The notes: generated by a model not told the origin, from the letters alone. A stretch of 64,000 bases of DNA from an uncultured Elusimicrobiaceae bacterium (GCA_964417965.1 CAYQJX010000010.1:318-64317); one strand, 5' to 3'; counted from the first letter of the stretch, positions 9,012 through 33,172 are shown. Numbers and translations are program-made.

Positions 9012-9056
9012 CCAGATAATTGTGCCTTTTTTGCCGAGCTCCCGCAATTTGGGCGC

Positions 9057-14285: not shown

Positions 14286-15283
14286 ATTTTGAAAGCGCGT
14301 ACGCCACCCTCCCGGTCTATCTCGCGCAGCACGTGCGCCGCGCAGCCGCCGTCGCATACCCCTTTTTTTCGCCAGGAGCAGCTGTCGCATTTTTCGTAGA
14401 TGCCGCCGGCTTCCTGCCTGATGTTCTTAGTGAACGTCCTGAAGTATTCCATCATGCCGTTGTAATCGTCGAAGTCGTACACCGATTTGCGGTGCGTGCC
14501 GGACAGCGGGAAGCAAGCCCACGCCATCATGTCCGGACCTATGTCCACGGGACCGCCGCAGGTGAATTTATGAACGCCCTTGGTGGCTTTATACAGCTGC
14601 CCCAGCTTTTCGTCGCTGAAAAGGCACATGGGGAACCCGCAGTCCAGCCCCGGGCAGACGTTCTGCTGGTCGAACACCGGCAGGTGGTTCAGCAGTCTGT
14701 CCACGATCCCCTGGATGTCGGGGATGGAGATGAAGGAATTATTCTCCCGCAGGATCGGGTGCGTAAGCCCCAGCCGTATGGAGCGCTTAAGCCCGTAACG
14801 GTTTATGTACTTGAAAAGGAAATCCAAACTGAAGTCTTTGCGGTAGATGTTAAAACCCGGCGTCACATGCGCCCCGAACTCCTCAAGGAACTCCTCCACC
14901 CGTTTAGTTTCGCTTTCCGGGGAGAAGGCCGGGTCGTTAAGGTTGCAGAGGAAGGAAACTTTCCTGTCGGCCTGCGGAACGGTCTTGTAAACCCGGCGCA
15001 GGTCATTTTTCACCTTCTCGGACATGATGCCGCTGCTGAAGACCGTAACGGAAAAATCCCGCTTAAGCGCGTAGGCCAGGAAGTCGGCGAACTGCGGGTG
15101 CAGCGTCGGCTCGCCCCCGAGGAACCTCATTTCGCGGCAGCCGCCCTGCGCGAACAGATCCGCGAGATAGACCAGGTCTTCCCATTTGATCACGTCGCCG
15201 CCGTCGTTCTCACCCATCTGCTTCTTGGCGAAGCAGTACGGGCAGGAACGGACGCATTTTTGTGTAAGCAGTATGTTTGGCAT
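14282..15283 (-). CDS. Radical SAM/SPASM protein
   Basis: CVRSCPYC; FLGGEPTLH; CGGPVDIGPD...AC and CDSC...CDGGC. Confidence 0.88.
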   Translation of the reverse strand: MPNILLTQKCVRSCPYCFAKKQMGENDGGDVIKWEDLVYLADLFAQGGCREMRFLGGEPTLHPQFADFLAYALKRDFSVTVFSSGIMSEKVKNDLRRVYKTVPQADRKVSFLCNLNDPAFSPESETKRVEEFLEEFGAHVTPGFNIYRKDFSLDFLFKYINRYGLKRSIRLGLTHPILRENNSFISIPDIQGIVDRLLNHLPVFDQQNVCPGLDCGFPMCLFSDEKLGQLYKATKGVHKFTCGGPVDIGPDMMAWACFPLSGTHRKSVYDFDDYNGMMEYFRTFTKNIRQEAGGIYEKCDSCSWRKKGVCDGGCAAHVLREIDREGGVRAFKI

Positions 15284-18440: not shown

Positions 18441-20236
18441 GCGGGCACCTCCCGGTGCTCCTTGTACCATTTTGCCTGTGCCGTGAACATCTCCGCGTAA
18501 TAACCGTTCCGGGCAAGAAGGATGTCGTGCGGGCCTTGTTCGATGATCCGGCCTTCGTTCATGACTATTATTTCGTCGGCCAGCCGTGCCGCCGCCAGGC
18601 GGTGCGTGATGTATAAAGTGGTCATCCGCCCGTTAAGGCCGGACCTTCTGACGGTCTCGTAGAGGTTATTCTCGGCTAGCACATCAAGGGCCGCCGCCGG
18701 TTCGTCGAACACAAAAAGCCTGGCTTCCCGGCCGAAACTCCTGGCCAGTGCCAGCAGTTGCCATTGCCCGCCGGACAGGTCCGTGCTGTCCGGCTCCAGT
18801 TTACCCAAAGCGGTATCGGCGCCTTTTGGGAACGAACGGACTTTCACGGCCAGGCCCATCTGCTCCAGCAGCGCGTCTATCTTTCCCGCGGGAAGAGCGG
18901 GATTTCCCAATCTCAGTTGTTCCGTTACCGTCAGTTGATACTTGGCGTATTCCTGGTAAAGCACCGAGAAGTACGCTTTCCTTTCCGCGGCGGTGAAGGA
19001 GTTTATATCCCTGTTGTTCAGCAGTATCCTGCCAGTATAGTTCCGGTAGAGGCCCGTCAGCAACTTTATCACGGTCGATTTCCCGCAACCGTTCCTGCCC
19101 ACGAAGGCATACTGCTTGCCGGGAAGGATGGTAAGCGAAAAATCGCGGAGAATCTCCCTTTCGGACCCGGGATACTTAAAGCTAACGCGGTCGAAAACCA
19201 AGCTTTCCAGCGGCATGCCGCAAATGCGCTCATCCGGGGCCAGGTCGCTGCCGGGCACCTCCGAAAGCCGCTGCGCGCACTCCAAGTCTTCCAGGTACAG
19301 CCGGTTGCCGGTGTAGTCTTTGAGCAGTCCCGAAAGTTGCCAGGACAAGGTATGGATAAGCGCCGAAAGGGAGATCACCAGGCTTATAAAGACGCCGGCC
19401 GTCATCCTGTTCTCCTTTACGAGCAGCAGCAAAAGCAGGGAAACAGCTACGAGCAGCAGCGTGAAGACCGCGCTTACGCTCTTTGAGCGGAGAAAGATCT
19501 TCCTGTCCGCCTTAAAATCCAGCTCTATTCTCCGGTCCGTCTCCTCGCCCCAGAATTTGCCTATCCTGTCGCCAAAGCCGAACAGCGTCCTCTCCGAGGC
19601 CGCTTCCCTGGAAGACAGCAGGGACCTGAAATACTTGGCCTTCCTCGCGTGGGGAGCTATCTGCGCACCGGCTTCGTACGCCTCGGTCCCGCTCTTCTTG
19701 GCGATCATGACCACCGGAAAGGCCAGCAGCAGGCACGCGACGGCGGCCGGAACGGAGGAGTGGCCTATAATGGCGATAAGCCCCAGGACGCTGAGGATAA
19801 TCGCGGCCAGGTCCAGCAGATTAGTGAAACCGCGCTCTATCGAGCCGGGAAGGTCTTCGCCTACGCGCTCAAGCAGGTCGTAGGTCTCGTCGTTCTCGAT
19901 ATGCTCGTAGGAAAGACGGTTGAGCTTTGTGACAAGCTGCGGTTTCAGCTTGTTTTCAAGACGCATGTTGAAGCTGAGCTCCGCGAGCCGGGCCGCGGCC
20001 TGGAGCAGATAGCCGGCCATTAATACGGCAAAAAGCCCCGCCAGCGGAAAAAAGGCGGCGGACAGGCTTTGGGCGGAGATAACTCCGGGCAATACGTCAA
20101 GCAGGCCGGCGATGGCCAGCGTCTGCAGCACAGGCAGGGCGGCCTGCGCGGTGCGGAGGAGCAGCAGGCCCGCGGTTAACGGCCTGCTGCAATGGAAAGA
20201 TATGGCGATGTACCTTAGGTTCTTGAGAGTATTCAT
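18437..20236 (-). CDS. ABC exporter, TMD-NBD subunit A
   Basis: GRNGCGKST, LSGGQWQ, FDEPAA; N-terminal TM domain with no C39 peptidase domain. Confidence 0.88.
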   Translation of the reverse strand: MNTLKNLRYIAISFHCSRPLTAGLLLLRTAQAALPVLQTLAIAGLLDVLPGVISAQSLSAAFFPLAGLFAVLMAGYLLQAAARLAELSFNMRLENKLKPQLVTKLNRLSYEHIENDETYDLLERVGEDLPGSIERGFTNLLDLAAIILSVLGLIAIIGHSSVPAAVACLLLAFPVVMIAKKSGTEAYEAGAQIAPHARKAKYFRSLLSSREAASERTLFGFGDRIGKFWGEETDRRIELDFKADRKIFLRSKSVSAVFTLLLVAVSLLLLLLVKENRMTAGVFISLVISLSALIHTLSWQLSGLLKDYTGNRLYLEDLECAQRLSEVPGSDLAPDERICGMPLESLVFDRVSFKYPGSEREILRDFSLTILPGKQYAFVGRNGCGKSTVIKLLTGLYRNYTGRILLNNRDINSFTAAERKAYFSVLYQEYAKYQLTVTEQLRLGNPALPAGKIDALLEQMGLAVKVRSFPKGADTALGKLEPDSTDLSGGQWQLLALARSFGREARLFVFDEPAAALDVLAENNLYETVRRSGLNGRMTTLYITHRLAAARLADEIIVMNEGRIIEQGPHDILLARNGYYAEMFTAQAKWYKEHREVPA

Positions 20237-20287
20237 GTTGCTTTCGCCGCGGCCGTATTACGGCCATTTAACCGCTGCAGCGGCAGA

Positions 20288-21370
20288 TTAAAGGCAGCGG
20301 TCGGCCCGTGTTTTAAACTTGGTCCCTTCTCCGGTAGTCCCGCCTTTTCTCATGACCCGGTATTCCGATTCGGCCGTTCTTTTAGAATCGGAAGAGCAGG
20401 CGAGCGGCGAACCGTCCTCCAGCAACGCGTGCCCGGGACAATGGACGCACTTTTCCTTCAGGCCGCAGGTGGAACACTGCTGCAGATCGCTTTTCTTCAA
20501 CGACAGCAGATATTTCCGCTCGGGGGAATCATACCAGATGGTCTTCAGATCGCTCGAGAAGACATCCCCCAGCTTATGGCGGAAACTGATGCAGGGGAAA
20601 ACCTCACCGCTTGCATCTATGAAGATGGTGTTCTTGAGCGACGGGCAGATGCTCTCGTCCTGCCTCACTTTCTCCAGCAGCGCTTCGGCCTCCGGATTGC
20701 TGCTGGCCAGTATCAGGGCAATGGCGTCATCCATCCCGTCATCGTCCATGCGCAGGTCCCGCACTGACGTGTCGCCGTTCATTTTTGAGGAAATGGTAGG
20801 ACAGGGATTGAAATCGAAACCGTTTTCGGCACAGAATCCGCCCACTTCGCGGAAATCATGCCGATTGGTCTTAAGTATCGGAGTTTTTATCTCTACGGCG
20901 ATCCCATGCTTCTTCAGCAAAGCCACATTATCAAGGGCCTTCCGCAGAGACCCCTTGACTCCGGTAATGGCCTCGTGGACCTCATGGTTCAGGGAAAAGA
21001 TGGTCGTACCGAATGAGGAAATGTGAAGGTCCGCGAGCTCTTTGGCTATGCTCTCATTAATAAGCGTCGCGTTGCTCAGCAGATTGACGCTGAACCCCAG
21101 TGACCGGGCGTCCCTTACAGTGCCCATGATGTTCTTTCTTAGGAAGATCTCGCCTCCGGTCAGATTAAGGTACAACGCCCCAAGTTCCCTCAATTCCCGC
21201 AGAAGTCTCGCGACCACTGCGTCATCAAGCCCTTCAGAAACGCGTTCGGGAATATAGCAATGGGTGCATTTCAGGCTGCACCTGGTCAGAAGCTCAATGG
21301 TAACATTGAGCGGGATATCGGCTTTCTGGGTTATTGTCTGCAGCGAAACGGCCTTGATATTTTCTTTCAT
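20288..21370 (-). CDS. Radical SAM/SPASM peptide maturase (PqqE-like)
   Basis: CSLKCTHC; LTGGE; CPSL...GEVFPC...CSTCGLKEKCVHCPG...C. Confidence 0.9.
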   Translation of the reverse strand: MKENIKAVSLQTITQKADIPLNVTIELLTRCSLKCTHCYIPERVSEGLDDAVVARLLRELRELGALYLNLTGGEIFLRKNIMGTVRDARSLGFSVNLLSNATLINESIAKELADLHISSFGTTIFSLNHEVHEAITGVKGSLRKALDNVALLKKHGIAVEIKTPILKTNRHDFREVGGFCAENGFDFNPCPTISSKMNGDTSVRDLRMDDDGMDDAIALILASSNPEAEALLEKVRQDESICPSLKNTIFIDASGEVFPCISFRHKLGDVFSSDLKTIWYDSPERKYLLSLKKSDLQQCSTCGLKEKCVHCPGHALLEDGSPLACSSDSKRTAESEYRVMRKGGTTGEGTKFKTRADRCL

Positions 21371-21642
21371 TTTGCCAGCTCCCCGGAAGCAGCGATGAAC
21401 CCCTTCTCGACCAGGAGTTCCGTAAGTCCGGTCATATCAGCATCCAGCACTCTTTCCTCCACGTCATAGCTTTTTAGCAGCTCGGCCCTGATGGCCTCAT
21501 AGTCATGGAGCTTCCCGATAAGCAGCCAGAAATCTTTCCCGACATTGTCGAGGGCGTAGATGAACGAGTTCCGCTCATCGCGGAGATACAGCGTGTCCAG
21601 GATCACCTGCCACGCCACGTTAAACGTATATGTCAAACGCAT
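21367..21642 (-). CDS. PqqD/RRE peptide chaperone
   Basis: 91 aa; IYALDNVGKDFWLLI...ELLKSYDVEERVLDADMTGLTELLVEKGFI; ATGA overlap with the rSAM gene. Confidence 0.85.
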   Translation of the reverse strand: MRLTYTFNVAWQVILDTLYLRDERNSFIYALDNVGKDFWLLIGKLHDYEAIRAELLKSYDVEERVLDADMTGLTELLVEKGFIAASGELAK

Positions 21643-21808
21643 CCGGCTGTCCCCTTTTAGCGAAAGTGTAAGGTAAAAAAGCCTGAAACCCACCTGCTTC
21701 GAATAAATCCCGGAAAAGATCTAACCCGAACGTATTATATTCTTAAATGGCCGGACTGGTCCAGAACATGCCGGAGGCAGCCGGGAACCGAAACCGCAAT
21801 ATAGGCGC

Positions 21809-21855
21809 CAGGACAACGGCAGCGGACACTAACTACTCGTCCCTGCCGTTGCCTG
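21809..21855 (-). promoter_or_regulatory. Stem-loop after precursor 2
   Basis: CAGG-A-CAACGGCAG-C-GGAC pairs with GTCC-CTGCCGTTG-CCTG. Confidence 0.6.
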
Positions 21856-21867
21856 ACCCGGGACCGT

Positions 21868-21981
21868 TTAGAGCACCTCGCCGGATTTGCCGTTGCAGGC
21901 ATTGCCGTGACCGCAGCGCGTGGCGGTTTTGGCGCAATTGGAAACAACGGTCAGAACGGGCGTCGAGTAAGTTTTTTTCAT
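21868..21981 (-). CDS. Putative RiPP precursor 2 (37 aa, 3 Cys)
   Basis: AGGAG RBS; MKKTYSTPVLTVVSNCAKTATRCGHGNACNGKSGEVL with a YxxPxL RRE-binding leader motif; directly upstream of the PqqD and rSAM genes. Confidence 0.82.
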   Translation of the reverse strand: MKKTYSTPVLTVVSNCAKTATRCGHGNACNGKSGEVL

Positions 21982-22040
21982 GATAATCTCCTGGTAATTT
22001 TGTTCGTTTTCTGCGTTACAAGTTGTTACGCCCAATACGG

Positions 22041-22056
22041 AGCAATTTATATGCCA
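22041..22056 (-). promoter_or_regulatory. Sigma-54 promoter of precursor 2
   Basis: TGGCATATAAATTGCT on the minus strand. Confidence 0.8.
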
Positions 22057-22111
22057 GGGCGCCTTGTTACAGAAGCGGCCAAGTGTTTTGCTTACGGATG
22101 CCGCAAAATAT

Positions 22112-22147
22112 ATTCTCATTTGAAAATATTGTTTTCAAATATGAATA
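22112..22147. promoter_or_regulatory. Palindromic activator site (candidate UAS) plus a weaker second site
   Basis: ATTCTCATTTGAAAAT at 22112-22127, identical to 28617-28632; degenerate GTTTTCAAATATGAAT from 22131. Confidence 0.65.
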
Positions 22148-22221
22148 GAAAAGCAGGGCAATGGCCCGCTTTCCTAGTTTTGGATAGCTCCGGGAGGTCA
22201 GGCCCAGGGCGGTTCTTTGCC
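22141..22221 (-). repeat. Imperfect direct repeat, copy B: kinase 2 3' end plus terminator
   Basis: Aligns with 16510-16594. Confidence 0.8.
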
Positions 22222-23880
22222 GGTTACTTTAAGCCAGGGGAGATGAGAGAATTTTTCGGGGCCGTGGCCGGTGGCCATGGTGAGGTCGGTAAAACCTTTC
22301 GCATGCAGGGCCTGGGCCGTGTCTTCGCCCTTAACGTCGCCGCCCAGCTCGGAGTCTATATAGATTGGCGTATCTTTGGGCAGGGCTTCAGTGCCGGCGA
22401 TAAGTTCTTCCGGGGTTTTATGCGCCTTGAACTCCACGCCTGCGGCTTTGGCGGCCATCCGCCAGTTCATGTGCACCAACAGGTCGTCGTCCAGCAGCAC
22501 CGCGCGCGCAGGCGCGGTTTTAGCCGCGGCCGCCGGCAGTTCCAGCGTAACGGCGGTGCCTTTGCCCGGCTCGGATTCCATCCTGAAGCTGCCGCCCCAG
22601 GCCTCCACCGTTTTGCGGGCGTGGTAAACGCCCAGGCCGGTGCCGCCGGCCTTGCCGTGCGTTTCGCCCTTCTGCCCCAGCCTGGCCAGGATCTCCGGCT
22701 GTATGCCTTTGCCATTGTCCTTTACGGTCAGCAGCACTTTGTGGTCCAGGGCGGACAGGGAGACCGAGACGGTACCCGGCCCGCTGAAGGCTTCTACCGA
22801 GTTATTGATAAGGTTTGAGACCAGCCGCTGGAATTCGGTGGGCTCCACTGAAGCTTTGATCTCCGCAGCGCCGGCGGCGAAATCGATACTGACGCCGGGC
22901 TTATCCTTGTGCTGCAGCCGCTTCTCCGCGACCACCTGCTCCACAAGACCGCCAAGAGCGAGCACCGCGGTTTTGGGTTTAGCCGGCCCGGAGGACGGCG
23001 CGCGGTAACGGGTTAGCAGTTCGTCGGCTATGCCCTGCATGCGCGCCACCGCCCCGTCTATCATGTTGCGCTGCTCCTGCGGGAGCTCCAGCCCTTTAGC
23101 CGCCGCATCCAGCGCCGCCAGCGGCGACCGTATATCGTGCGCCACCTGCGCGGCCAGGTCTGAGGTGGCCTTGGAGATAGCCAGCTCGCTCTCCAGCCGC
23201 GCCGCCTTGCCGAGCGCGTCGCTCATGCGCCCCGTCATCTGCGCGAAAGGCGTGCCTATGGTGCCGGACGGCAGGCCGGCTATATGTTTTTTTATGGACT
23301 CCCGGATGACCTCGCTGTGCCGGGAGTCGGCCACGGCGTTGATCTCGTTGACCGAGCGCTCTATAGCGAGCAGCGTCTTCATTGCACCCAGATTGGAGAT
23401 AATCAGCAGCCCCAAGAAAAAGAAGACCACGGTAATGAACAGCACGTAGTTCTGGCCGAACACCGCGGCGTTTACGTCCAGCAGGTCTATCACGTACTCA
23501 AGCCGGCCCAGCTCAGCGCCGTTGGAGACGAACGGCACGTTATGCGTTATCTGCGCGCGCGGCCGGTCGTAAAGATTGCCTACTATCGCCTCTTTGAAGA
23601 TCCACCTGCTGCCCTCGAACACTACCGGGTGGAAAGCAATGCGTTTTATGTTTTCGTTCTTTATGCGCCACATTATGCGCTGCGTCTCAAAAACGTCGCC
23701 GTCCAGGAAGGCCTTCTCAAAGTAGGCCGCGTTCTGCCGCATGGCGGTCAGCAACTTGTCATCAGCCACCCGCACAGCGGAAAACGCCGAGAAAGCCTGC
23801 CAAAAAGCGACGAAGACCAGCACCGACACAGCATAGTGCCGCCAGTTATAAGCGAATATCCTGAGAAATATTTTTACCAT
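22198..23880 (-). CDS. Membrane hybrid histidine kinase (HisKA-HATPase-REC), copy 2
   Basis: VAHDIRSPL, NLINNSVEA, DNGKG, GTGLG; receiver LDDD...IDS...ATG...GKEPPWA; C-terminal half closely similar to copy 1. Confidence 0.9.
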   Translation of the reverse strand: MVKIFLRIFAYNWRHYAVSVLVFVAFWQAFSAFSAVRVADDKLLTAMRQNAAYFEKAFLDGDVFETQRIMWRIKNENIKRIAFHPVVFEGSRWIFKEAIVGNLYDRPRAQITHNVPFVSNGAELGRLEYVIDLLDVNAAVFGQNYVLFITVVFFFLGLLIISNLGAMKTLLAIERSVNEINAVADSRHSEVIRESIKKHIAGLPSGTIGTPFAQMTGRMSDALGKAARLESELAISKATSDLAAQVAHDIRSPLAALDAAAKGLELPQEQRNMIDGAVARMQGIADELLTRYRAPSSGPAKPKTAVLALGGLVEQVVAEKRLQHKDKPGVSIDFAAGAAEIKASVEPTEFQRLVSNLINNSVEAFSGPGTVSVSLSALDHKVLLTVKDNGKGIQPEILARLGQKGETHGKAGGTGLGVYHARKTVEAWGGSFRMESEPGKGTAVTLELPAAAAKTAPARAVLLDDDLLVHMNWRMAAKAAGVEFKAHKTPEELIAGTEALPKDTPIYIDSELGGDVKGEDTAQALHAKGFTDLTMATGHGPEKFSHLPWLKVTGKEPPWA

Positions 23881-25292
23881 CTAAAATCAGCCACCTCTGG
23901 ATATTCCGAGAACCCCCGACCGACATCTAAATTTTTAATATTTTGTGGATAATAAAGCTTTGTACTGCTTTGATACAACGGCAAGACAACAGCCTCCCGC
24001 TGCACCCCGCTCGCCAACGCCATCGCTGCCTTCACCTTATCGGCCCTACCGTCCAGGGAGAGTAATTCCTTGTACATTTTCCTGAGATCGGCAGGAACAC
24101 TATCTATCACAGCAGCCTCACCCAGATAGTACTCAAAAAACGGCGCATATTCCGGCCTGACCGTATCAGATACAATCACGATCAGCCCATAAGACTTCAA
24201 CTTAGAGCGATTATGCAATTCGCTTACCAGATCCTTTGGCACGTAGTTCTTAATAATTAGTTTGAGCCCAGTACGATCGAAGAGTCGTTTAGAGAACTCT
24301 CTAAGCTGCACAGCATTGTTTTGGTATAGATTCGCTAAAACAATTTGTTTGTTCTTTAAATAGTGCTTTTTCTCATTAGTGCATGCCGTACTACTTCTGC
24401 CCGCCTCCCCCCCTGGAATGCCTAAAGGCAGCAGCCACTTCACATCCAGTAACCCCTTCCTTTCCGGAAGAAAAGCTTCCCTAAATTCTCCCGCGTCGAC
24501 ACAATTATATACAGCATCGCGAAAACGGCTATCTGGATTATTGATGGCTAATCCCACGACACGCAGTTCGATGTTGAAAAATCCGGCAAACTCTTTCTGG
24601 ATCCATTCCGGCTGCTGGAATGTGGACAGTTTGTTGAAGTCACAGATACTCCTATCGTTAAGCCGCACGTCCCCCGGGCCGGAATACTCATGAAAGATTA
24701 CTTTGTTGTATCCATTTCGGACCGGCTTTTTTCTTTCCAGTGTGATTTGCTTACTCTTCACGCTTTTCACGAAAAAGGGGCCCAGCCCGGATTCGTATCC
24801 GGTTTCAACTTTTATGCTGGGCGCATTATCAAATTTTGATAAAAAGTCCAGATACCCATGCTTCGGTTTCTGGAACCTTATAGAAACACAGCCTTCGTTT
24901 TTGTTTATAGTGGCCCCTGGCTCATATTTCTTTGTGACTTCGGAAATATATGAGAGGAAATACTGGAAAGAAAATCCGTTTTTCGCGTCAAAGCGCAGGG
25001 TCGTGTCGGGACAAAACAGGTACTCAGTAGATAAGTTGTTGCGTCCCCAGCGTTTTAATATGCGTGACGCATAGTTCTGGCCGTCATCTTGGCGAAAAAC
25101 CGGTTCGTGCGTCTGCCGGAGGACATAGAAGGTGGAGGTTTCAGATTCGTTCTTAACGGACACTTCCGCAGGCAAGGCTCCGATCAGCACCTTCCAAACA
25201 TCCTTCTCAGAGGACGTGCCGGCAGCGCACTCCCCGGCAAAGATCGGACAAAAGAGTACCCCTAATATCCAGGCCGCGTGATTTGTAGACAT
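23874..25292 (-). CDS. Family-5-like solute-binding protein, copy 2
   Basis: Signal peptide; HEPVFR...ASRIL, GLGPFFV and VLPLYQ segments; overlaps the kinase start; AT-rich. Confidence 0.65.
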   Translation of the reverse strand: MSTNHAAWILGVLFCPIFAGECAAGTSSEKDVWKVLIGALPAEVSVKNESETSTFYVLRQTHEPVFRQDDGQNYASRILKRWGRNNLSTEYLFCPDTTLRFDAKNGFSFQYFLSYISEVTKKYEPGATINKNEGCVSIRFQKPKHGYLDFLSKFDNAPSIKVETGYESGLGPFFVKSVKSKQITLERKKPVRNGYNKVIFHEYSGPGDVRLNDRSICDFNKLSTFQQPEWIQKEFAGFFNIELRVVGLAINNPDSRFRDAVYNCVDAGEFREAFLPERKGLLDVKWLLPLGIPGGEAGRSSTACTNEKKHYLKNKQIVLANLYQNNAVQLREFSKRLFDRTGLKLIIKNYVPKDLVSELHNRSKLKSYGLIVIVSDTVRPEYAPFFEYYLGEAAVIDSVPADLRKMYKELLSLDGRADKVKAAMALASGVQREAVVLPLYQSSTKLYYPQNIKNLDVGRGFSEYPEVADFRW

Positions 25293-26008
25293 TCAGAATG
25301 GAAACCTATTTTTTTCAGGAATTTATTGGATGCGACATTGAACGGGTTGGCGCCTGTAGCCACAACATCCACAACCTGCGACTTTAACCAAGAGACCATC
25401 CGGCTTTTCACCTCGCACCTCTCATCCCCGGTCAACCCCGGGTCTATCCACACCCAGGTTATCCAATCAATATCCGTCCCGTCAAAGTATTTCGCCTTGT
25501 TCAATGGCAGCAATGCAATAGGATGACCGCTTTTACCGAGACAAAACACTTTTGCTTCCGGGATATGCTGTTCCGCGTTCGTTTGAATGATCTTAAGGTA
25601 CTCACTCTCAAGATATTGTTTCCACGGATACCCGAGTTTTTTAGCCCATGGACCACCGAAGTAGTTTTTCTCCGTAGACAAATAGAGTTCCTGCACCTCC
25701 GCTGAGCTCTTAAACGGATAGTCATCGATTCCAGACGGCGTTGCGCATTGGTTGGGGACAGTTAGCCCATCTCGTTGCGTCCGGTAGATCAACCTGGCTA
25801 AATATTTACCAGAAAGGTTCTTGTTCAGCGCGGCAAAGTCTTCGGGGATCTCATGCTTAAAATTCACAAGAAGTGTCGGGGTTTCCAAAGGCCAAGGAAT
25901 ATTATCCACAAGAGCGTTAGTAATCACGGCTGCATCATCCGCTTCGCACACCAGCAGCCTGTTCGTTTTGCTCACAACCTTTATTTTTTCCGGCATATCA
26001 TGACCCAT
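25262..26008 (-). CDS. Putative GNAT-fold protein
   Basis: C-terminal ITWVWIDP...NPFNVASNKFLKKIGF resembles GNAT motifs A/B; start may be 25996. Confidence 0.5.
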   Translation of the reverse strand: MGHDMPEKIKVVSKTNRLLVCEADDAAVITNALVDNIPWPLETPTLLVNFKHEIPEDFAALNKNLSGKYLARLIYRTQRDGLTVPNQCATPSGIDDYPFKSSAEVQELYLSTEKNYFGGPWAKKLGYPWKQYLESEYLKIIQTNAEQHIPEAKVFCLGKSGHPIALLPLNKAKYFDGTDIDWITWVWIDPGLTGDERCEVKSRMVSWLKSQVVDVVATGANPFNVASNKFLKKIGFHSECLQITRPGY

Positions 26009-26876
26009 AAATTGTTTTTTTATCCGTTGTCAGTTTCCTGAAAACTTTTTCACATAACACGCATGGAGCCGAATCCTCCGGGAGGAACGGGGCCATATTT
26101 AAACCAAATTTTTTGATAATCCCCCTGAAAGACAAACTTCGCATCATACGGTAAAACTCACTGTCCAAGTGAGCTTTAAGCGTTGGATGACAAATGTTTT
26201 GGATATTAGTATCAAAAACCAGAGAAGAGCAACAAATACTAAATCCTTTTTCCGGCAAGCAGGTTATTACTTTTTTATTAGGGCACCTGCGAGACAAGAC
26301 ATTGCGGTCAAAACTGGGATGCTGGTAAAAGATCCTGTTACTCCGGGCCCGCCCTACTGGCAACACCTTTTGCATCCCTATCTGAAAGTCTCCGATGTCC
26401 TTCAACTTATTAAGCAGCAGCATATCCATCGGCGACTGAACAGATGCCACCACTCCGAACCCGATATTCAAACTGCGACAGGCATTATGCAGGTTCCGGA
26501 TGTAGGAGAATGGCAAGAACTTCTTATGAAATTTATCATAAGACAACTGCACAGAATCCAATTTTTTAAACGAGGAGAGAAGTGTGACCGCGGAGCTCTT
26601 TGTTTTAGCAAAATGCCCGTTAGTGGTTATTTTGACTTTGAATTTATTCAATTTCCCGAGTTTCGAAAGGAACGCATTTGTACGGTCGAGATATAGGGTG
26701 GGCTCTCCCCCCAGAAAATGCAACGTTTTCATGCCATGCGATTCAACCGCATCCAGCAGAAGGCTCTCTTCTCGCGGATTAAGCGCCGCACTTGCATCAG
26801 GAGAACAACAGTGCGCACATGCAAAGTTGCATTTAAATCCGAACATGATGCCGATCTTGGATATTCTTTCAGTCAT
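25998..26876 (-). CDS. Radical SAM enzyme resembling the YydG/EpeE peptide epimerase
   Basis: CNFACAHCC, TTNGHFA, LSYDKFH, PVGRA, RCP...ICCSSL.F and CVLC follow the YydG/EpeE motif order as recalled from memory. Confidence 0.72.
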   Translation of the reverse strand: MTERISKIGIMFGFKCNFACAHCCSPDASAALNPREESLLLDAVESHGMKTLHFLGGEPTLYLDRTNAFLSKLGKLNKFKVKITTNGHFAKTKSSAVTLLSSFKKLDSVQLSYDKFHKKFLPFSYIRNLHNACRSLNIGFGVVASVQSPMDMLLLNKLKDIGDFQIGMQKVLPVGRARSNRIFYQHPSFDRNVLSRRCPNKKVITCLPEKGFSICCSSLVFDTNIQNICHPTLKAHLDSEFYRMMRSLSFRGIIKKFGLNMAPFLPEDSAPCVLCEKVFRKLTTDKKTIYGS

Positions 26877-26888
26877 TTTCCACAAAAA

Positions 26889-26927
26889 TTAACGCCCGAG
26901 TTACCTTTGGTAAAGCCCGGGCGTTAA
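26889..26927 (-). promoter_or_regulatory. Stem-loop after candidate precursor 3
   Basis: TTAACGCCCG...CGGGCGTTAA outer stem with inner TTACC/GGTAA. Confidence 0.55.
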
Positions 26928-26962
26928 CCCATTTGAATATCGAAAAGAACTTTACAGAAAGA

Positions 26963-27175
26963 TCACCCGACCTTGGTGGGCTTGGGGTCCCCATGGACAA
27001 GAACCTGGGCGCACACATTATTTAACATGCGCTGCTTCGCAGGATTCTGGATTACCTGCATAAGAGAATTCTTTTGTTTAGCCGGGAGGGTTCGGACATA
27101 CTGAACCGCCTGTATTGCAGAAAATAAGCCGACCGACACCAAAAAAGCCGCTATTATTTTGTCTTTCGTTGTCAT
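26963..27175 (-). CDS. Candidate precursor 3 (70 aa, Sec-type signal peptide)
   Basis: AAGGGG RBS; hydrophobic N-terminus ending AIQA; internal PAKQ repeat; first gene before the rSAM. Confidence 0.55.
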   Translation of the reverse strand: MTTKDKIIAAFLVSVGLFSAIQAVQYVRTLPAKQKNSLMQVIQNPAKQRMLNNVCAQVLVHGDPKPTKVG

Positions 27176-27236
27176 TTTGTTTTCCCCTTAACCCCTATAT
27201 TCTGCCATTTTTGCGGGTTTTGCGCAATTTGCCGAT

Positions 27237-27273
27237 AAAAAAAGGGAAAGCAAAGTGACTTTTTGCTTTCCCT
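27237..27273 (-). terminator. Intrinsic terminator of the rpoN-like gene
   Basis: AGGGAAAGCAAA / TTTGCTTTCCCT stem with a T tract on the minus strand. Confidence 0.75.
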
Positions 27274-27412
27274 GGATACATCCGATTAAGGTCGGATCGT
27301 GGATACTCTGGGGCCAATCCCCCAAATTACAAGGAAGACTACACGGATAGTGTACATCGCGGGGCTTGCGCGCGTAAGGGCATTAGTGCCCACGCGGCGC
27401 TAGGCCCTTGGG

Positions 27413-28465
27413 CTACCGCGCGCCGGCGGCGGCGAGGCTGAGGTCTTTGCGGTACTGGGCGATGGAGCGGCGGCTCAGGTCCACGCCGTGGCGGGAGCGC
27501 AGCTCCGCGCAGAGCCGGGTGTCGCTGAGCTGCGGCTGTTCGGCGGCTATGGAGTAGAGGCGGTCCAGGTTGACCTTCTTGGAGCTGGGCAGCAGCACCT
27601 CCATGGGCGCCTCCATGCCCCAGGGCATCTGTATCGATTTATTGGAGACCAGGCGGTTGAGCACGCTGGCGTCCACCTCCAGGTTCTTGGCCAGCGTCTT
27701 CTGGGACAAGGGGCGGCGGCGGCTGGGGTCCCCGGTGGCCAGGTAGTCGGCCTGCACGCTGATTAGGATCTCCAGCGCGCGGTAAAGGGTGGTCTTGCGC
27801 TTGTCGGCGAACTCTATCTTTTTCAGCAGCTTCTCCACGCGCTTGCGCTCGGCGGGGTCCATACCGGGCAGCAGGGCGGCCAGCTTGTCGCCGTCCACCT
27901 TGTAGCGGCCTTTCCAGATCTCGCGATGAAAGAAGGCCAGCACGGGCTCGCCGTCGTCCAGCTCTATGCCGGCCACGGCGCTGAACACCTTGGCGGCGGG
28001 GGCCTCGGGCTTCGCCTCGAATTCGGCCTGGATGAAGGCCCGGTTGACGAAATCGCGCAGGCGTTCGGCGTCCTTAATTGTAATGTCGCATTCTTCGGCG
28101 CGCTCTATGTCGCTCATCACGGCGTCGCGCAGGAAGCAGGCCTCGAACTTCTCCTGGCCTATCCCCTGGATCAGCTTCACCAGGTCGCCAGTGCCGTCGG
28201 CCAGCTCGGGCAGGTCGCCGCTGGCCATATTGAGGCCGTAGCCGGCGTATTTGCGCGCGGCGTAGCGGGCGGCGGGAAATTCGCTCAGGTTGATGGCGCC
28301 GGAGGTCTTGAGCAGCTGGAACACGCGGCCGCCCTCCAGGTCCTTTATCATCTCCGCGAATTCTTCCTCGGGCATTTCGGCCATCTGGGCCATTTTAAGC
28401 GCGCCCAGCAGGGCGGCCGAAGTTCTTGCCCCGGTGGAGGCGGTGAGTTTAAAGCTGTGTTTCAT
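27413..28465 (-). CDS. rpoN: Short, divergent sigma-54 factor
   Basis: HTH PLSQKTLAKNLEVDASVLNRLVSNKSIQMPWG and RpoN-box-like SRRSIAQYRKDL; only 350 aa. Confidence 0.78.
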   Translation of the reverse strand: MKHSFKLTASTGARTSAALLGALKMAQMAEMPEEEFAEMIKDLEGGRVFQLLKTSGAINLSEFPAARYAARKYAGYGLNMASGDLPELADGTGDLVKLIQGIGQEKFEACFLRDAVMSDIERAEECDITIKDAERLRDFVNRAFIQAEFEAKPEAPAAKVFSAVAGIELDDGEPVLAFFHREIWKGRYKVDGDKLAALLPGMDPAERKRVEKLLKKIEFADKRKTTLYRALEILISVQADYLATGDPSRRRPLSQKTLAKNLEVDASVLNRLVSNKSIQMPWGMEAPMEVLLPSSKKVNLDRLYSIAAEQPQLSDTRLCAELRSRHGVDLSRRSIAQYRKDLSLAAAGAR

Positions 28466-28653: not shown

Positions 28654-30000
28654 ATGGAAAAACTCAATATTTTCGTACTGGAAGACGACAAACTGGCCCA
28701 GAAGGTGATGGGCGCGCACCTGTCCCCCCACACAGTGGACATGGCGGCCGACCTGGACTCGGCCCTTAAAAAGCTGGACGCCGGCCGCTACGACATGGGC
28801 TTCTTCGACCTGATGCTGGGCGTGAACGACGACTATTCCGGCCTTAAGGCCATAGCCGCGGCCGCCAAAAAAGGCATCTACAGCGTGGTGGTCTCCAGCT
28901 CGGACTCGGACGAGATGATAGACAAGGCCTACGCCCTGGGCGCCTCTGATTTCTACGCCAAGGGCAACGAAGAGGCTAACGTGGAGGAGATCCTGCGCAA
29001 GTTCCTGCAGAACCGCAGGGCCGCGGCTTCCGACGATATCTTCACCTCCGCCTTCATCACCGAGGACCCCGAGACCCGCGCGGCGGCCACGGAAGCGCTT
29101 AAGTACGCGCCCACCGACCTCCCCATCCTTATCCTGGGCCCCTCCGGCACCGGCAAGACCTCGCTGGCCAACATCCTGCACGAACATTCCGGCCGCGAGG
29201 GCGCCTTTGTCTCCATCAACTGCTCCGCCTATACCGACGACCTGCTGGAGGCCGAGCTGTTCGGCCACAAGAAGGGCGCTTTCACCGGCGCGTCCGAGGC
29301 CCGCAAGGGCCGCCTGCTGGAAGCCCACCGCGGCACCCTGTTCCTCGACGAGATCGGCACCATGAGCCACAACATGCAGATGAAGCTGCTCAAGGCCATA
29401 GAGGAAAGGACCTTTTATCCCCTCGGCTCCGAGAAGCCCGAGCGGTCCGAGTTCCGCATCATCAGCGCCACGCTGGAGGACCCGCAGGCCCTCATCGCGC
29501 AGGGCAAGATGCGCTTCGACCTGTTCCAGCGCATCCACGGCTACACCATCAACCTCAAACCGCTGGCGCGGCGCCGCGCGGACATCTTCCCGCTGGTGCA
29601 CCATTTCACCAAGGGCGGCCGGCGGCTCTCTTTCAGCCCGGACGCCAAGGCCTTCATGCAGGACTACGCCTGGCCGGGCAATATCCGCGAGCTCAAGAAG
29701 TTCACGGACCTCGTGTCCGGCGGGCAGCAGGGGCGGGTGGACCTGGACACGGCAAAGCGGCATCTCAAGGGGCAGGCCCTGGCCGCGGGCGCGGGCTACG
29801 AGGATTCGCTCTACGCGCTGGCGCTGGCCGAAGGCCTGGACGCCGCGCTGGAGAAGGTGACCGGCGAGCTGGTAGGGCGCAGCCTCCGCGAGAACGGCGG
29901 CGTGCGCACCAAGACGCTGACCGACCTGAAGATCTCTACAAGGCTTTTATACGCCACCCTCAAAAAACTGGGGCTGGATACCGAAGGGGGAAAGAAATGA
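28654..30000 (+). CDS. NtrC-family sigma-54 enhancer-binding response regulator
   Basis: REC domain (EDD, FFDL, YAK); GPSGTGKT; [13 protein letters not shown]; LFLDEI; WPGNIREL; C-terminal HTH. Confidence 0.92.
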
Positions 30001-30179
30001 CCGGGATAGATAATTCGAAACTGCTGCACGACCTGCGCTCCAAGTGCTCCAGCCTCAAGAGCGCCGCCGAACTCTACAAGGACTGTTCGCCCGCGGAAAA
30101 GAAGGAAATGCTGGCGCTGATGAACTCGGCCGCCGCCGAGATAACCAGACTGCTGGGCCAGCTTGAGAAGTCCGCCTAG
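29997..30179 (+). CDS. Stand-alone 60-aa HisKA/DHp-like protein
   Basis: LLHDLRSKCSSLKSAAEL H-box-like helix plus a second helix; ATGA overlap with the activator gene. Confidence 0.6.
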   Translation: MTGIDNSKLLHDLRSKCSSLKSAAELYKDCSPAEKKEMLALMNSAAAEITRLLGQLEKSA

Positions 30180-30243
30180 AGCGGGGTTAATAAGTATAAT
30201 TAGGTGGTCGCCCGTACCGTGGCGAATTCTTATGGAGGAAACA

Positions 30244-31764
30244 ATGAAATCATTAGCGCTGCTGCCTCTGCTGCTGCTCTGCTGCGCGCCGCTCTACGCG
30301 GCCGGCGGACAGAAGGACGAGCTCCCGCCGGGAGCCTCCATAGAGAAAGACCCCAAATACCCGCCCGTGATCGCCTACACCCTCAAGAACGGGCTGAAGC
30401 TGCTCATCCTCGAGAAAAAATTCGTGCCCACCGTCTCCTTCACCCTGATGTTCAAGGCCGGCAACGTGGACGGGCAGCAGGGCAAGACCGGCCTGGCCCA
30501 CCTGATGGAGCATATGGCCTTTAAAGGCACCAAGACCATCAACTCCGCCAATTACGCCAAGGAAAAGATCGCCCTGGAGAAGGTAGAAAAGGCCGCCCAG
30601 GCCATGATAGCCGCGGAGTCCGCCGCCGCGCCCGACCTGAAGAAGGTGGAAGAACTGCGCAAGGCCCTGGACGCCGCCGAGAAAGAGGCCGACGCCCTGA
30701 TAGTGAAGGACGAATACTGGAAGCTTTACAACACGCTGGGCGAATCCGGCATGAACGCGATGACCTCCACCGACTATACCGGCTACGTGGTCTCGCTGCC
30801 CGCCAACCGGCTGGAAGCCTGGATGGTGATAGAATCCGACCGCTTCAAGAACCCGGTGCTGCGCGAGTTCTACCGGGAGCGCAACGTGGTGATGGAAGAG
30901 CGCCGCATGGGCGAAGCCGACCCCAACAGGACGATGTGGGAAACGCTGGTCTCCAACGCCTTCGTGGCGCACCCCTACCAGAACCCGACCATCGGCTGGA
31001 TGGACGACCTGAAGCGCCTCACCCGCACCGACGCCGAGGCCTTCTTCAAGGCCTTCTACGTGCCCAACAACGCCACGCTGGCCGTGGTAGGCGACGTGAG
31101 ACCGGCCGAAGTGATAAAGCTGGCCGAAAAATATTTCAGCGACTGGCAGAACCGCCCGCTGCCCGCGCGCGACTACACCAGGGAGCCCGCGCAGAAGTCG
31201 GAAAAAGTCATCAGCGTCTTCTTCAAAGCCAAGCCCGCGCTGCGCATGGGCTTCCACAACCCCGGCATGGACAACCCCGAGATCTTCCCGCTGATCATGG
31301 CCTGCGAGGTGCTCTCCAACGGCAAGACCGGGCGCTTCTACAAGACCCTGGTGGAAGGCCAGGAGCTGGCGCTCTACGCCGAAGCCTACGCCTCCTTCCC
31401 CGGCAACCGCTACCCGTCGCTCACCGTGATCGCCGCGGCCCCCAAGGCCCCGCACACGGTGGAGGAACTGGACGCCGCGCTGCTGGCCGAGGTGGAGACG
31501 CTCAAGAAAGAGCCCCCGACGCGCTGGGAGCTGGACAAGATCCTCAATAACTACGAAGCCGAGATGATAAAGCAGCTGGAGTCCAACTCCGGCCTGGGCA
31601 TGAACCTGGCCCAGAACGAGCAGATCTTCGGCGACTGGAAGTACGACTGGAAGATAGGCGAGGAGCTGCGCAAGGTGACCCCGGAGCAGATCTCCGCGGC
31701 CGCCGCCAAATACCTCACCCGTGACAACCGCACGGTAGTTTTCCTTAAAGAGCCGCTCAAATAA
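30244..31764 (+). CDS. M16 (pitrilysin-family) peptidase, catalytic subunit, secreted
   Basis: Signal peptide; HLMEH (HxxEH) and ERNVVMEE; GGAGG RBS, start at 30244. Confidence 0.88.
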   Translation: MKSLALLPLLLLCCAPLYAAGGQKDELPPGASIEKDPKYPPVIAYTLKNGLKLLILEKKFVPTVSFTLMFKAGNVDGQQGKTGLAHLMEHMAFKGTKTINSANYAKEKIALEKVEKAAQAMIAAESAAAPDLKKVEELRKALDAAEKEADALIVKDEYWKLYNTLGESGMNAMTSTDYTGYVVSLPANRLEAWMVIESDRFKNPVLREFYRERNVVMEERRMGEADPNRTMWETLVSNAFVAHPYQNPTIGWMDDLKRLTRTDAEAFFKAFYVPNNATLAVVGDVRPAEVIKLAEKYFSDWQNRPLPARDYTREPAQKSEKVISVFFKAKPALRMGFHNPGMDNPEIFPLIMACEVLSNGKTGRFYKTLVEGQELALYAEAYASFPGNRYPSLTVIAAAPKAPHTVEELDAALLAEVETLKKEPPTRWELDKILNNYEAEMIKQLESNSGLGMNLAQNEQIFGDWKYDWKIGEELRKVTPEQISAAAAKYLTRDNRTVVFLKEPLK

Positions 31765-31774
31765 AGGAAAAACC

Positions 31775-33172
31775 ATGAAAAAATCGATAACAGGAGCCGT
31801 ACTGATGACCCTCTTTAGCGCCGCCTCTTTCGCGCTGCCCCCCGCCCTGCCCAAGCTGGCCGGCGTAGACTTCAAACCGCCGCAGGGCTCGCGCGTCGTG
31901 CTGCCCAACGGCATGATCGTCTACCTCATGAAGGACAACACCCTGCCGGTGGTCCACATGACCGCCTTCATCCGCACCGGCAAGCTCAACGACCCCTTAG
32001 AGAAGGTCGGCCTGGGCGAGATGACCGCAGGCCTGCTCAAGGACGGCGGCACGCTTAAGTACAAGCCGGAAGAGATAGACAAGACCCTGGAATTCCTGGC
32101 CGCCTCGGTGGAAACCTCCATGGGCATAGAGGAAGCGCGGGCCAACATGACCGTGCTTAAGAAGGACCTGGACGCGGTGCTGGACATCTACGCCGACACG
32201 CTGATGAACCCCGCCTTCGCCCCGGACAAGGTAAAGCTCAAGCGCGACGAAACCCTGGAGCTCATCCGCCGCCGCAACGACGATCCCGGCCGCGCGGTGG
32301 TGCGCGAGGCCCTGCGCGCCTTCTACGGCCCGGCCCACCCCTACGGCTGGCGCAGCGAGGAGGCCACGGTCAACGCCGTCACTATCGAGGACATGAAGGC
32401 GTACCACGCCAACTACTACAAGCCCAACAATATCATCATCGCCGTGGCCGGCGACTTCGGCTCGGAGGAGGAGATGCTGGCCAGGCTCAAGGCGAAGTTC
32501 GGCGCCTGGCCCCGCGGCGAGGTTAATTTCCCCGTCATCCCCCCCGTGGAACTTAAGGCCGGCCGCCAGGTCTTCCACGTGGAGAAAGAAAGCTCCCAGG
32601 CCTATATCGTGATGCTGCAGAAGGGCATAAAGCGGCACGACCCGGTGGAATACCCGCTCAGCGTGACCACCGAGATGCTGGGCGGCGGCCTCTCGTCGCG
32701 CCTGGCGGCCGAGATCCGCTCGCGCAAAGGGCTGGCCTATACCGTCTACGCCTATTCGGCGAAAAAGCCGGATTACGGCTATATCCTGGCCTATTGCGGC
32801 ACCAAGCCCGAGACCTATTCGCAGGCGCTCTCCGAGATGCTGCGCCAGTTCAAGCTGATCACGGAGGAGGCCGCGCCCGCCGAGGAAGTGGTCCGCGCGC
32901 GCGACTCCATAGTAAATTCCTTCGTCTTCAGGTTCCCCACGCCGTTCGAGCTCCTGAGCGAACGGGCCTCCTTCGAATATTACGGCTACAAGACGGACTA
33001 CCTGGACAACTACGTGGAGAACATCGCCAAAACCGACCCCGCGGCCGTGCTGGCGGCCTCCAAACGGCTGTTCAAGCCCGACGAGGCCATGCTGTTCGTG
33101 ATCGGCAACTCCAAGAAGTTCGACAAGCCGCTCTCCGAGTTCGGGCCGGTGACGGAGCTGAAGGAAGACTGA
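31775..33172 (+). CDS. M16 peptidase partner subunit (no HxxEH)
   Basis: M16 fold motifs; LSSRLAAEIRSRKGLAY substrate-binding R/Y segment. Confidence 0.85.
   Translation: MKKSITGAVLMTLFSAASFALPPALPKLAGVDFKPPQGSRVVLPNGMIVYLMKDNTLPVVHMTAFIRTGKLNDPLEKVGLGEMTAGLLKDGGTLKYKPEEIDKTLEFLAASVETSMGIEEARANMTVLKKDLDAVLDIYADTLMNPAFAPDKVKLKRDETLELIRRRNDDPGRAVVREALRAFYGPAHPYGWRSEEATVNAVTIEDMKAYHANYYKPNNIIIAVAGDFGSEEEMLARLKAKFGAWPRGEVNFPVIPPVELKAGRQVFHVEKESSQAYIVMLQKGIKRHDPVEYPLSVTTEMLGGGLSSRLAAEIRSRKGLAYTVYAYSAKKPDYGYILAYCGTKPETYSQALSEMLRQFKLITEEAAPAEEVVRARDSIVNSFVFRFPTPFELLSERASFEYYGYKTDYLDNYVENIAKTDPAAVLAASKRLFKPDEAMLFVIGNSKKFDKPLSEFGPVTELKED

Follow-up and report, generated by a model that had tools for sequence, protein, structure and literature searches.

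A 2'-dG-II riboswitch precedes an apparently exchangeable peptide, radical SAM enzyme and binding-protein cassette in Elusimicrobia

A 64-kb stretch of DNA from an uncultured Elusimicrobiaceae bacterium (hereafter the window, with coordinates counted from its first letter) carries five close-packed genes on the minus strand, running from 27175 to 22198. They encode a putative 70-aa precursor peptide, a radical S-adenosylmethionine (rSAM) protein, a 248-aa protein with a GNAT fold, a 472-aa solute-binding protein (SBP) and a membrane histidine kinase (HK). We propose that this cassette makes an exported peptide, probably containing D-amino acids, whose production is gated by 2'-deoxyguanosine (2'-dG) and which is sensed by a co-inherited SBP and kinase. 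Taken as a whole, we give this chain an even chance of being correct. Its most unusual features are a riboswitch of the 2'-dG-II class and the modular swapping of part of the cassette, both of which were absent from the preliminary description of this DNA. The elements of the cassette, all on the minus strand, are:

27267-27337, minus strand: aptamer of a 2'-dG-II purine riboswitch (RF03165; cmscan 85 bits, E 3e-22, model positions 1-71)
27233-27273, minus strand: intrinsic terminator found by a terminator scan, a 12-bp stem AGGGAAAGCAAA/UUUGCUUUCCCU followed by U7
27176-27232, minus strand: conserved leader with a TTGCGC-N17-(TGG)CAGAAT sigma70-like element and an AAGGGG Shine-Dalgarno sequence
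26963-27175, minus strand: precursor open reading frame (ORF), 70 aa
25998-26885, minus strand: radical SAM protein, 295 aa, with an EpeE/YydG fold and a T-SPASM-like domain
25262-26008, minus strand: tandem-GNAT-fold protein, 248 aa, an optional accessory of the cassette
23874-25292, minus strand: family-5 SBP, 472 aa, of a divergent NikA/OppA/AapF type
22198-23880, minus strand: membrane histidine kinase, 560 aa, with HisKA and HATPase_c domains (Pfam)

The first three genes lie at the coordinates and on the strand originally assigned to them, and the probable real start of the rSAM gene is the ATG at 26876. The preliminary description had also placed an SBP and a kinase in the operon, and this holds: a family-5 SBP and a HisKA/HATPase_c kinase follow downstream in overlapping genes. 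The overlaps are 11 nt between the rSAM and 248-aa genes, 31 nt between the 248-aa and SBP genes and 7 nt between the SBP and kinase genes. Judged from this layout, the region from 27175 to 22198 appears to be a single operon behind the riboswitch. The window sequence was recovered in DNA metagenomes only, from groundwater and similar sources.

The cassette is conserved in gene order. A search of species-representative genomes with a 14-sequence alignment recovered 24 Elusimicrobia loci, and all 24 have the order peptide, rSAM, a variable slot (GNAT, peptidase or none), SBP and kinase. Several genomes have two or more copies. The same order is found, at lower similarity, in Oligoflexia and Bdellovibrionales of the Bdellovibrionota.

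Within this constant order, the parts of the cassette have different evolutionary histories. Pairwise identities of the peptide core, rSAM and SBP are correlated with one another (r = 0.46-0.78 overall, with 0.53 for core and SBP and 0.78 for rSAM and SBP). Kinase identity, compared with that of the core, rSAM or SBP, gives an r of about -0.1. For example, the kinases of loci L002 and L022 are 97% identical (93% at the DNA level), and their peptides, rSAMs and SBPs are only 46%, 40% and 41% identical, with no DNA similarity there; DNA similarity returns in the riboswitch and leader. Loci L008 and L014 have the reverse pattern. In the window, the block from the peptide through the SBP has a GC content of 44-48%, versus 61% for the kinase and for the window as a whole, with a step at the SBP/kinase junction, and the same step occurs in ten other loci. 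We considered homogenisation of kinases within a genome as the cause of kinase conservation and rejected it, as paralogues on the same contig (L004 and L008) are only 74% identical.

The peptide, rSAM, GNAT and SBP genes thus form a low-GC block that is inherited as a unit and exchanged between two conserved flanks, the riboswitch and leader on one side and the kinase on the other. The block and the kinase differ in evolutionary history. Because the boundary of exchange falls between the SBP and the kinase, the SBP appears to belong functionally with the peptide. Sensing of a modified peptide by the SBP and kinase gains support from this pattern, because the SBP co-varies with the core and the rSAM and not with the kinase. 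By analogy, the pattern of exchange resembles that of specificity (pherotype) regions in peptide signalling loci.

The riboswitch ahead of the cassette is a full-length match to the 2'-dG-II class. Its 85 bits exceed the RF03165 gathering score of 60, and it is the sole Rfam match in the window. Hallmarks of the class are C51, A48, a 2-nt insertion in J3/1 and a terminal C that pairs with the ligand (PMC6847200). The window aptamer has a J2/3 of AGUAUCCAC, with C51 and A48, and a 5-nt J3/1, GUAUC, that includes the class-specific 2-nt insertion. In 20 related loci from named Elusimicrobia genomes, the same aptamer and its terminator precede the peptide gene by 55-65 nt, and aptamers at ten further loci score 61.7-85.6 bits. 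A conserved TAnACT box similar to a -10 element precedes the aptamer in related loci. The terminator hairpin has a predicted energy of -15.9 kcal/mol (RNAfold), and its stem is kept across loci with a variable loop. Its 5' arm re-uses the GGGAA of the 3' strand of aptamer P1. Because the terminator arm overlaps P1, stabilisation of P1 by ligand would prevent termination, and the riboswitch would be an ON switch.

The class itself has been described from metagenomes. According to PMC5473149 it comprises 12 metagenomic examples without an assigned phylum, and PMC5473149, PMC6847200 and PMC8872408 cite Weinberg et al. 2017 for it. We found no paper in the searchable literature that links the class to Elusimicrobia. 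In contrast to those examples, the aptamers reported here stand in named Elusimicrobia genomes before an operon for a modified peptide and a sensor.

The riboswitch is not specific to this cassette. We considered and rejected that possibility, as an unbiased pattern scan of metagenomes (loci L081-L160) recovered 81 aptamers, only 14 of which precede the peptide cassette. All of the 15 loci (16 aptamers) that were re-checked with Rfam passed. Thirteen aptamers precede a 454-aa rSAM/SPASM maturase (TIGR04463-like) of peptides that are made by the ribosome and modified after translation (RiPPs) with an ABC transporter; ten are followed by a secreted 239-aa protein, and four by an SBP-like 537-aa protein with a kinase. 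One aptamer each precedes a protein with GGxGNCxxGxDGRMxCGG repeats (L101) and a lone receiver domain (L143), and the remainder are found before other secreted or Cys-rich proteins and pairs of binding proteins and kinases. The riboswitch seems to govern a regulon rich in genes for secreted proteins and modified peptides.

The rSAM protein resembles EpeE (YydG), the epimerase of the epipeptide system of Bacillus subtilis, which turns L-residues (Val and Ile) of its substrate peptide into their D-forms. Its top NCBIfam match is TIGR04078 (YydG; E 1.6e-18, 67.2 bits, residues 12-229), and no other NCBIfam model extends beyond the N-terminal core or exceeds 39 bits. Among PDB sequences, YydG/EpeE is the sole substantial match to the single sequence. 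A profile of 37 homologues matches EpeE end to end (residues 6-285 versus 29-326 of the chain, E 2.7e-25), whereas the second-best match, viperin (E 4e-10), covers the core only. An AlphaFold (AF2) model of the protein (pLDDT 91.5) aligns in Foldseek with the EpeE crystal forms 8ai1-8ai6 at TM 0.72-0.75 over about 320 columns, versus TM 0.46 over 177 columns for the runner-up, a viperin-like enzyme. SkfB, CteB and SuiB are among the weaker profile and Foldseek matches.

The cluster cysteines and the H-donor Cys of EpeE are retained. The preliminary description recognised the YydG/EpeE motif order, including CxxxCxxCC, and the segment with the H-donor Cys; both are present, the first as C19xxxC23xxC26C27 and the second as ICCS. 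Cysteines 19, 23, 26, 201, 218, 275 and 278 are invariant across the 37 homologues. C19, C23 and C26 align with the CX3CX2C triad that holds the rSAM cluster of EpeE, and C201, C218, C275 and C278 align with the ligands of its auxiliary [4Fe-4S] cluster and are predicted to bind a cluster. The segment S-I-C218-C219-S aligns with P-C222-C223-S of YydG, and C219, which corresponds to the H-donor Cys223 of EpeE, is kept in at least 90% of the homologues (P0058 and P0082 are exceptions). SYDxxH and NG[FH] motifs are common to the family and YydG. From these comparisons the enzyme appears to be built on the EpeE plan and to retain the residue that defines epimerisation, as a member of a distant, separate subfamily and not an EpeE orthologue. 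We think it slightly favoured that the enzyme epimerises the core peptide.

The 70-aa ORF has the organisation of a precursor peptide. Direct Pfam and NCBIfam scans of the ORF gave no match; a homologous gene precedes the rSAM gene in every related locus. The family comprises 39 unique homologues, whose alignment is gap-free up to residue 44 and divides the peptide into three parts:

27107-27175, minus strand: Sec-type signal peptide, residues 1-23 (MTTKDK, h-region IIAAFLVSVGLFS, AIQA/V)
27044-27106, minus strand: conserved segment xQYVxxLSxxEKxxLxxV from the family alignment, residues 24-44
26963-27043, minus strand: hypervariable core, residues 45-70 and the stop codon, PAKQRMLNNVCAQVLVHGDPKPTKVG

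Members of the family start with M-x-N-K-D-K, followed by a hydrophobic FLVSxGxFS stretch of 13-15 residues and then (A/V/I)-Q-A. The signal-peptide-like N-terminus in the preliminary description is borne out by this conservation (D5, K6, F11, L12, G16, F18, S19, Q22, A23 and Y26) and by the residues around the presumed cleavage site. Position -1 (A23) is Ala in 37 of the 39 sequences and position -3 is A, V, I or T, a pattern that fits signal peptidase I and from which we infer cleavage after Ala23. The following segment is similarly conserved (Y26 in 38 sequences, K35 in 37, L30 in 36 and L38 in 32). It may serve as a leader or for recognition, or may remain in the mature peptide as a conserved part.

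The core is variable in a way that would be expected of a RiPP. In the family, hypervariability is confined to the last 20-26 residues. Mean pairwise identity is 24% for the core versus 51% for the leader, and a conserved leader joined to a variable core points to a RiPP-like precursor. Because the core stretch RMLNNVCAQVLVHGDPK is identical in the window and in locus L202, despite an rSAM identity of only 57%, the core appears to be under purifying selection within a type. The tail NNVCAQVLVHGDPKPTKVG singled out in the preliminary description is present in the ORF. The PAKQ repeat singled out with it is also present, in two copies, but is without significance because it is absent from all 38 other members of the family; the closest relatives carry PEKQK...SAKQR in its place. 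Cores contain a recurrent motif of two aliphatic residues and a small one (for example, ILLCSG and QLASGS), which loosely resembles the preferred site W-I*-L-G-S-G of EpeX. Cys is present in 22 of the 39 cores, often as [ILV][ILV]C, and the 17 without Cys have a small residue instead after the two aliphatics.

The 248-aa protein is probably an optional tailoring enzyme. Direct Pfam and NCBIfam scans of it gave no match, and 5 of its 13 homologues had weak matches to Acetyltransf_3. The fold bears out the original assignment to GNAT: an AF2 model (pLDDT 88, pTM 0.84) has top Foldseek matches that are all GNAT or tandem-GNAT proteins (VipF, MshD, NMT and MAB_4324) at E values of about 1e-7, with TM scores of only about 0.45. 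An N-terminal, truncated pseudo-GNAT domain is followed by a C-terminal GNAT domain that ends in N-x-x-S-x-x-F-x-K-x-G-F. GNAT acyltransferases are known to act on RiPPs, as in the GNAT maturases that form lipopeptides. Like these, the 248-aa gene adjoins the gene for a RiPP maturase, and in one relative the two are fused. Unlike them, it encodes a tandem protein whose first domain is truncated and in which an acyl-CoA loop motif is not recognisable, and only about half of the cassettes have it.

The position of the GNAT gene is occupied in other cassettes by different genes. Elsewhere the slot is empty or holds an M3 oligopeptidase, a TldD/PmbA pair, a transglutaminase-like/TPR protein or a hydrolase with a beta-lactamase fold. 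Such interchange of GNAT and peptidase genes would be expected of optional tailoring and processing steps for a modified peptide. In a locus from Bdellovibrionales (L028:6926-8464), a 512-aa protein joins an EpeE-like rSAM to a GNAT-like domain at its C-terminus and is followed by an SBP and a kinase, and this fusion ties both enzymes to one pathway. Separately, a pair of M16 (pitrilysin-type) secreted peptidases is encoded on the plus strand of the window at 30163-33172, beyond the gene for an NtrC-type regulator described below. At L019:3854-6819, the orthologues of this pair sit immediately beside a gene for an EpeE-like rSAM. The M16 pair could process the peptide, or its position could be plain synteny.

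The 472-aa protein appears to be a divergent periplasmic SBP of family 5, the peptide/nickel family. By itself it had no direct Pfam or NCBIfam match. The family profile matches nickel and oligopeptide SBPs in the PDB (E 6.5e-9) and AapF over residues 49-437, and 5 of 23 homologues match PF00496, the best at 8.7e-12. Its hydrophobic N-terminus, judged by eye, resembles a signal sequence. No ABC permease is encoded near the SBP gene. The kinase has two transmembrane segments around a periplasmic domain of about 105 aa, then HisKA and HATPase_c, and at the C-terminus an extension of about 100 aa. Periplasmic residues 40-140 are its best-conserved part (80-94% identity). We considered a receiver domain in the C-terminal extension, which is receiver-like by eye, and rejected it, as there was no Pfam match even at E 5.

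Two regulatory genes lie on the other side of the riboswitch:

28654-30000, plus strand: NtrC-type, sigma54-dependent response regulator (Pfam Response_reg and Sigma54_activat)
27413-28465, minus strand: 350-aa protein with a sigma54 DNA-binding domain only (PF04552, E 1.7e-15, residues 217-349)

An orthologue of the NtrC-type gene adjoins the cassette in eight loci (L001, L003, L007, L009, L011, L020, L022 and L202), and this adjacency makes the regulator the probable partner of the kinase. The 350-aa protein has no recognisable core-binding region and is kept beside the NtrC-type gene in L003, L011, L022 and L202 at 68-81% identity. It may be a short or divergent sigma54 paralogue, and may be a context gene outside the system.

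Transcription signals around the riboswitch are of several kinds. The sigma70-like element in the leader is present in most loci, including one without a riboswitch (L006), and is a possible second promoter; a consensus promoter scan of the window did not call it. A canonical sigma54 promoter, TGGCATAAAAATTGCT, is found about 120-170 nt upstream of the aptamer only in L003, L023, L202 and L203, and its position before the riboswitch in these four loci hints at feedback. In addition, TGGCAGAATAT was considered as a sigma54 site and rejected, as it is an extended -10-like box and not a -24/-12 element. At L202:1930-1960, a similar sigma54 site, TGGCATATAAATTGCT, precedes a cluster of a 44-aa Cys-rich peptide, a 429-aa rSAM and an MFS protein, which suggests that sigma54/NtrC-type control of RiPP clusters may be common in these genomes. 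Lastly, L014, L021 and L023 have an extra conserved hairpin-like element, CCTTGGCCGnTnGnTGnGnATAnC...CGGCACnGGCAAAGCC, between the promoter-like box and the aptamer, in the roughly 55 nt just upstream of the latter.

Based on these observations, we postulate a sequence of events that starts with 2'-deoxyguanosine or a close guanine nucleoside. This ligand would open the riboswitch, and expression of the whole unit would rise. In the cytoplasm, the rSAM enzyme would abstract a C-alpha hydrogen and Cys219 would donate one to the opposite face, epimerising one or more aliphatic residues of the core. The GNAT-like protein, where present, would attach an acyl or aminoacyl group, and acylation is probable at the window locus. 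The peptide would then be exported by Sec, with the signal peptide cut after Ala23, and would bind its cognate SBP in the periplasm or outside the cell. The loaded SBP would switch the kinase through the conserved periplasmic domain, and the kinase would signal to the adjacent NtrC-type sigma54 activator. The swappable block would determine the specificity of signal and receptor, as in pherotypes. We suspect, with somewhat better than even confidence, that the peptide acts as a signal through the SBP and kinase.

Several points weigh against this proposal. The kinship with YydG holds in that EpeE is the best and sole full-length match, but 67.2 bits is far below the TIGR04078 equivalog cutoff of 300, short of strict membership, and Asp210 of EpeE is not conserved. 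This Asp210 is proposed to pass a proton to the thiyl radical (PMC13012085); Lys205 stands opposite it in the alignment, in a column that varies in the family (K, R, S or G). Epimerisation of the precursor is a prediction from sequence and modelled structure. In the 22 cores with Cys, a thioether or other cross-link is possible. Unusually, an rSAM substrate with a Sec signal has to receive its modification ahead of export, and a route for the peptide across the outer membrane is not evident. In the 248-aa protein, L-x-x-x-E-R stands at the position expected of the Q/R-x-x-G-x-G/A acyl-CoA loop (by eye, in the family alignment). The sensor domain of the kinase does not vary with the peptide, and co-variation of the peptide, rSAM and SBP may result from physical linkage alone. 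The promoter-like element after the terminator may make control by the riboswitch partial, such that it only adds read-through. No sigma54 promoter was found before the window's cassette, and any autoinduction loop is hypothetical.

One alternative is that the peptide is an antimicrobial or cannibalism toxin similar to the epipeptides, that the SBP and kinase detect it for immunity or autoinduction, and that the variable block reflects an arms race. The product of EpeE, the nearest characterised relative of the rSAM enzyme, is a toxin that acts on membranes and sets off a two-component system (PMC8326336). Diversification of bacteriocins would fit the hypervariable cores and the presence of several paralogous cassettes in one genome, and the kinase would have parallels in the LiaRS response to EPE and the NisK response to nisin. 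However, the cassette contains no immunity gene and no ABC exporter across the 24 loci. The cores are short and polar or charged, not amphipathic, and it is the SBP, not an immunity function, that co-varies with the core. We consider a toxin unlikely, although it deserves to be kept in mind.

A second alternative, to which we give about the same limited weight, concerns the chemistry: the enzyme could have the EpeE fold and catalyse another rSAM reaction, such as formation of a thioether, a C-C or C-O cross-link or a backbone modification. The loss of Asp210 and the low TIGR04078 score would fit, as would the frequent Cys in cores, often as [ILV][ILV]C, and the presence of the thioether enzymes SkfB, CteB and SuiB, with similar Twitch/SPASM folds, among the weaker matches. 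However, the equivalent of the EpeE H-donor Cys is kept in at least 90% of homologues. Because 17 of the 39 cores are without Cys, a Cys-dependent cross-link cannot be the shared reaction.

It is also conceivable, though very unlikely, that the 70-aa product is an unsecreted single-pass membrane protein that modulates the kinase, as MgrB and SafA do with PhoQ, and that the rSAM and GNAT-like proteins tune it. A length of about 21 residues can be assigned to the hydrophobic stretch, and the most conserved parts of the system are residues 1-44 of the peptide and the periplasmic and transmembrane region of the kinase. However, the conserved (A/V/I)-Q-A fits the -3/-1 rule of signal peptidase I, many cassettes contain peptidase genes, the C-terminal core is conserved within types, and the co-varying SBP would be left without a role. 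That the genes are merely adjacent in an operon, with an SBP and kinase for an unrelated solute (nickel, an opine or nutrient peptides) beside an independent peptide-rSAM RiPP, is barely credible: the nearest solved relatives of the SBP are nickel and oligopeptide transport proteins, but the genes occur together in 24 of 24 loci and in two phyla, and the inheritance of the SBP follows that of the peptide and rSAM, not that of the kinase.

A peptide signal sensed by the SBP and kinase, our preferred reading, has precedents in part. The closest is the epeXEPAB system of B. subtilis. EpeE and the window enzyme share a fold (an rSAM core and an extended twitch T-SPASM domain with one auxiliary [4Fe-4S] cluster), both are small and without an RRE domain, and the cluster cysteines, the CC pair with the H-donor Cys223 and SYDxxH align. 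In both systems a short precursor gene lies directly upstream of the enzyme and a two-component system is involved. However, the enzymes are only about 19% identical and Asp210 is replaced. The window precursor has no relation to EpeX, and in place of a leader removed by EpeP it has a Sec signal; neither an EpeP protease nor an EpeAB ABC transporter is encoded in the window cassette or the 24 loci. Moreover, the window operon codes for its own sensor, of which a binding protein forms part. According to PMC13012085, epipeptides occur only in Bacillota, whereas the window family is found in the diderm Elusimicrobia and Bdellovibrionota.

Sensing by a binding protein and a kinase is also known in other settings. 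LuxP/LuxQ, TorT/TorS and ChvE/VirA are histidine kinase systems that depend on a binding protein. As in these, the gene for a periplasmic SBP lies beside that of a membrane kinase that has a periplasmic domain, and a cognate ABC permease is lacking. In contrast, the window SBP belongs to the family-5 peptide/nickel type, the ligand presumed for it is the modified ribosomal peptide of the same operon, and its gene travels with the genes for the ligand and not with the kinase. The loci agrBDCA and comCDE are peptide quorum-sensing systems with pherotypes. The cassette is similar in that a precursor, a maturation enzyme and a receptor are combined in one unit, several specificity types occur among related genomes, and a hypervariable, co-inherited specificity region lies between conserved flanks. 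It differs in that the maturase is an rSAM enzyme and the receptor that bears specificity would be a separate SBP and not the sensor domain of the kinase. Furthermore, the host is a diderm, export is predicted to be by Sec, there is an upstream riboswitch, and any autoinduction is hypothetical.

The window contains further genes of related kinds. Directly downstream of the kinase, at 18437-22119 on the minus strand, is a second RiPP-like cluster with the following elements:

within 18437-22119, minus strand: small ORF ending ...MKKTYSTPVLTVVSNCAKTATRCGHGNACNGKSGEVL
21367-21693, minus strand: PqqD-like chaperone
20288-21370, minus strand: rSAM/SPASM maturase
18437-20236, minus strand: ABC transporter, with another at 16662-18470

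Additional rSAM genes lie at 12358-13467 (SPASM) and 14282-15283, both on the minus strand, so that genes of this kind abound in the first third of the window. In the region 6010-9047 (minus strand), a second kinase of 496 aa is 54% identical to the cassette kinase over 331 C-terminal residues. A 516-aa ORF (7497-9047) lies upstream of this kinase gene and overlaps it, and its product resembles the SBP-like 537-aa protein (L115). No riboswitch was found at this pair, unlike its counterpart in L115. The rSAM at 14282-15283 and the 516-aa protein were considered as members of the cassette families and rejected, as they belong to families other than those of the cassette rSAM and SBP.

Each part of the cassette is of a known kind. 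EpeE-like enzymes outside Bacillota, the precursor family and the combined cassette are absent from curated family libraries and from the searchable literature. To our knowledge, diderm bacteria have no established mode of peptide signalling that works through an SBP and a kinase and has a swappable specificity block. It is tempting to see here a new class of cell-cell or self-signalling in diderms, in which a Sec-exported and sometimes acylated D-amino-acid peptide is bound by a family-5 SBP that docks on a kinase, with block swapping and with gating by 2'-dG as a cue for DNA breakdown; we regard this broader proposal as tentative and rather doubtful.

If the findings reported here are correct, the 2'-dG-II class gains a host phylum, the Elusimicrobia, and a regulon in which RiPP maturases and secreted peptides predominate. 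The class has served as a structural model without a known host or biology, and its position before operons for modified peptides makes its physiological role testable. A sister family that has the catalytic Cys, in Elusimicrobia and Bdellovibrionota, extends EpeE-type chemistry, whose epimerases have been described from Bacillota only, and provides natural variants without Asp210 for the study of mechanism. If the peptide does act as a signal, the cassette would be a tractable model for the evolution of specificity between signals and their receptors.

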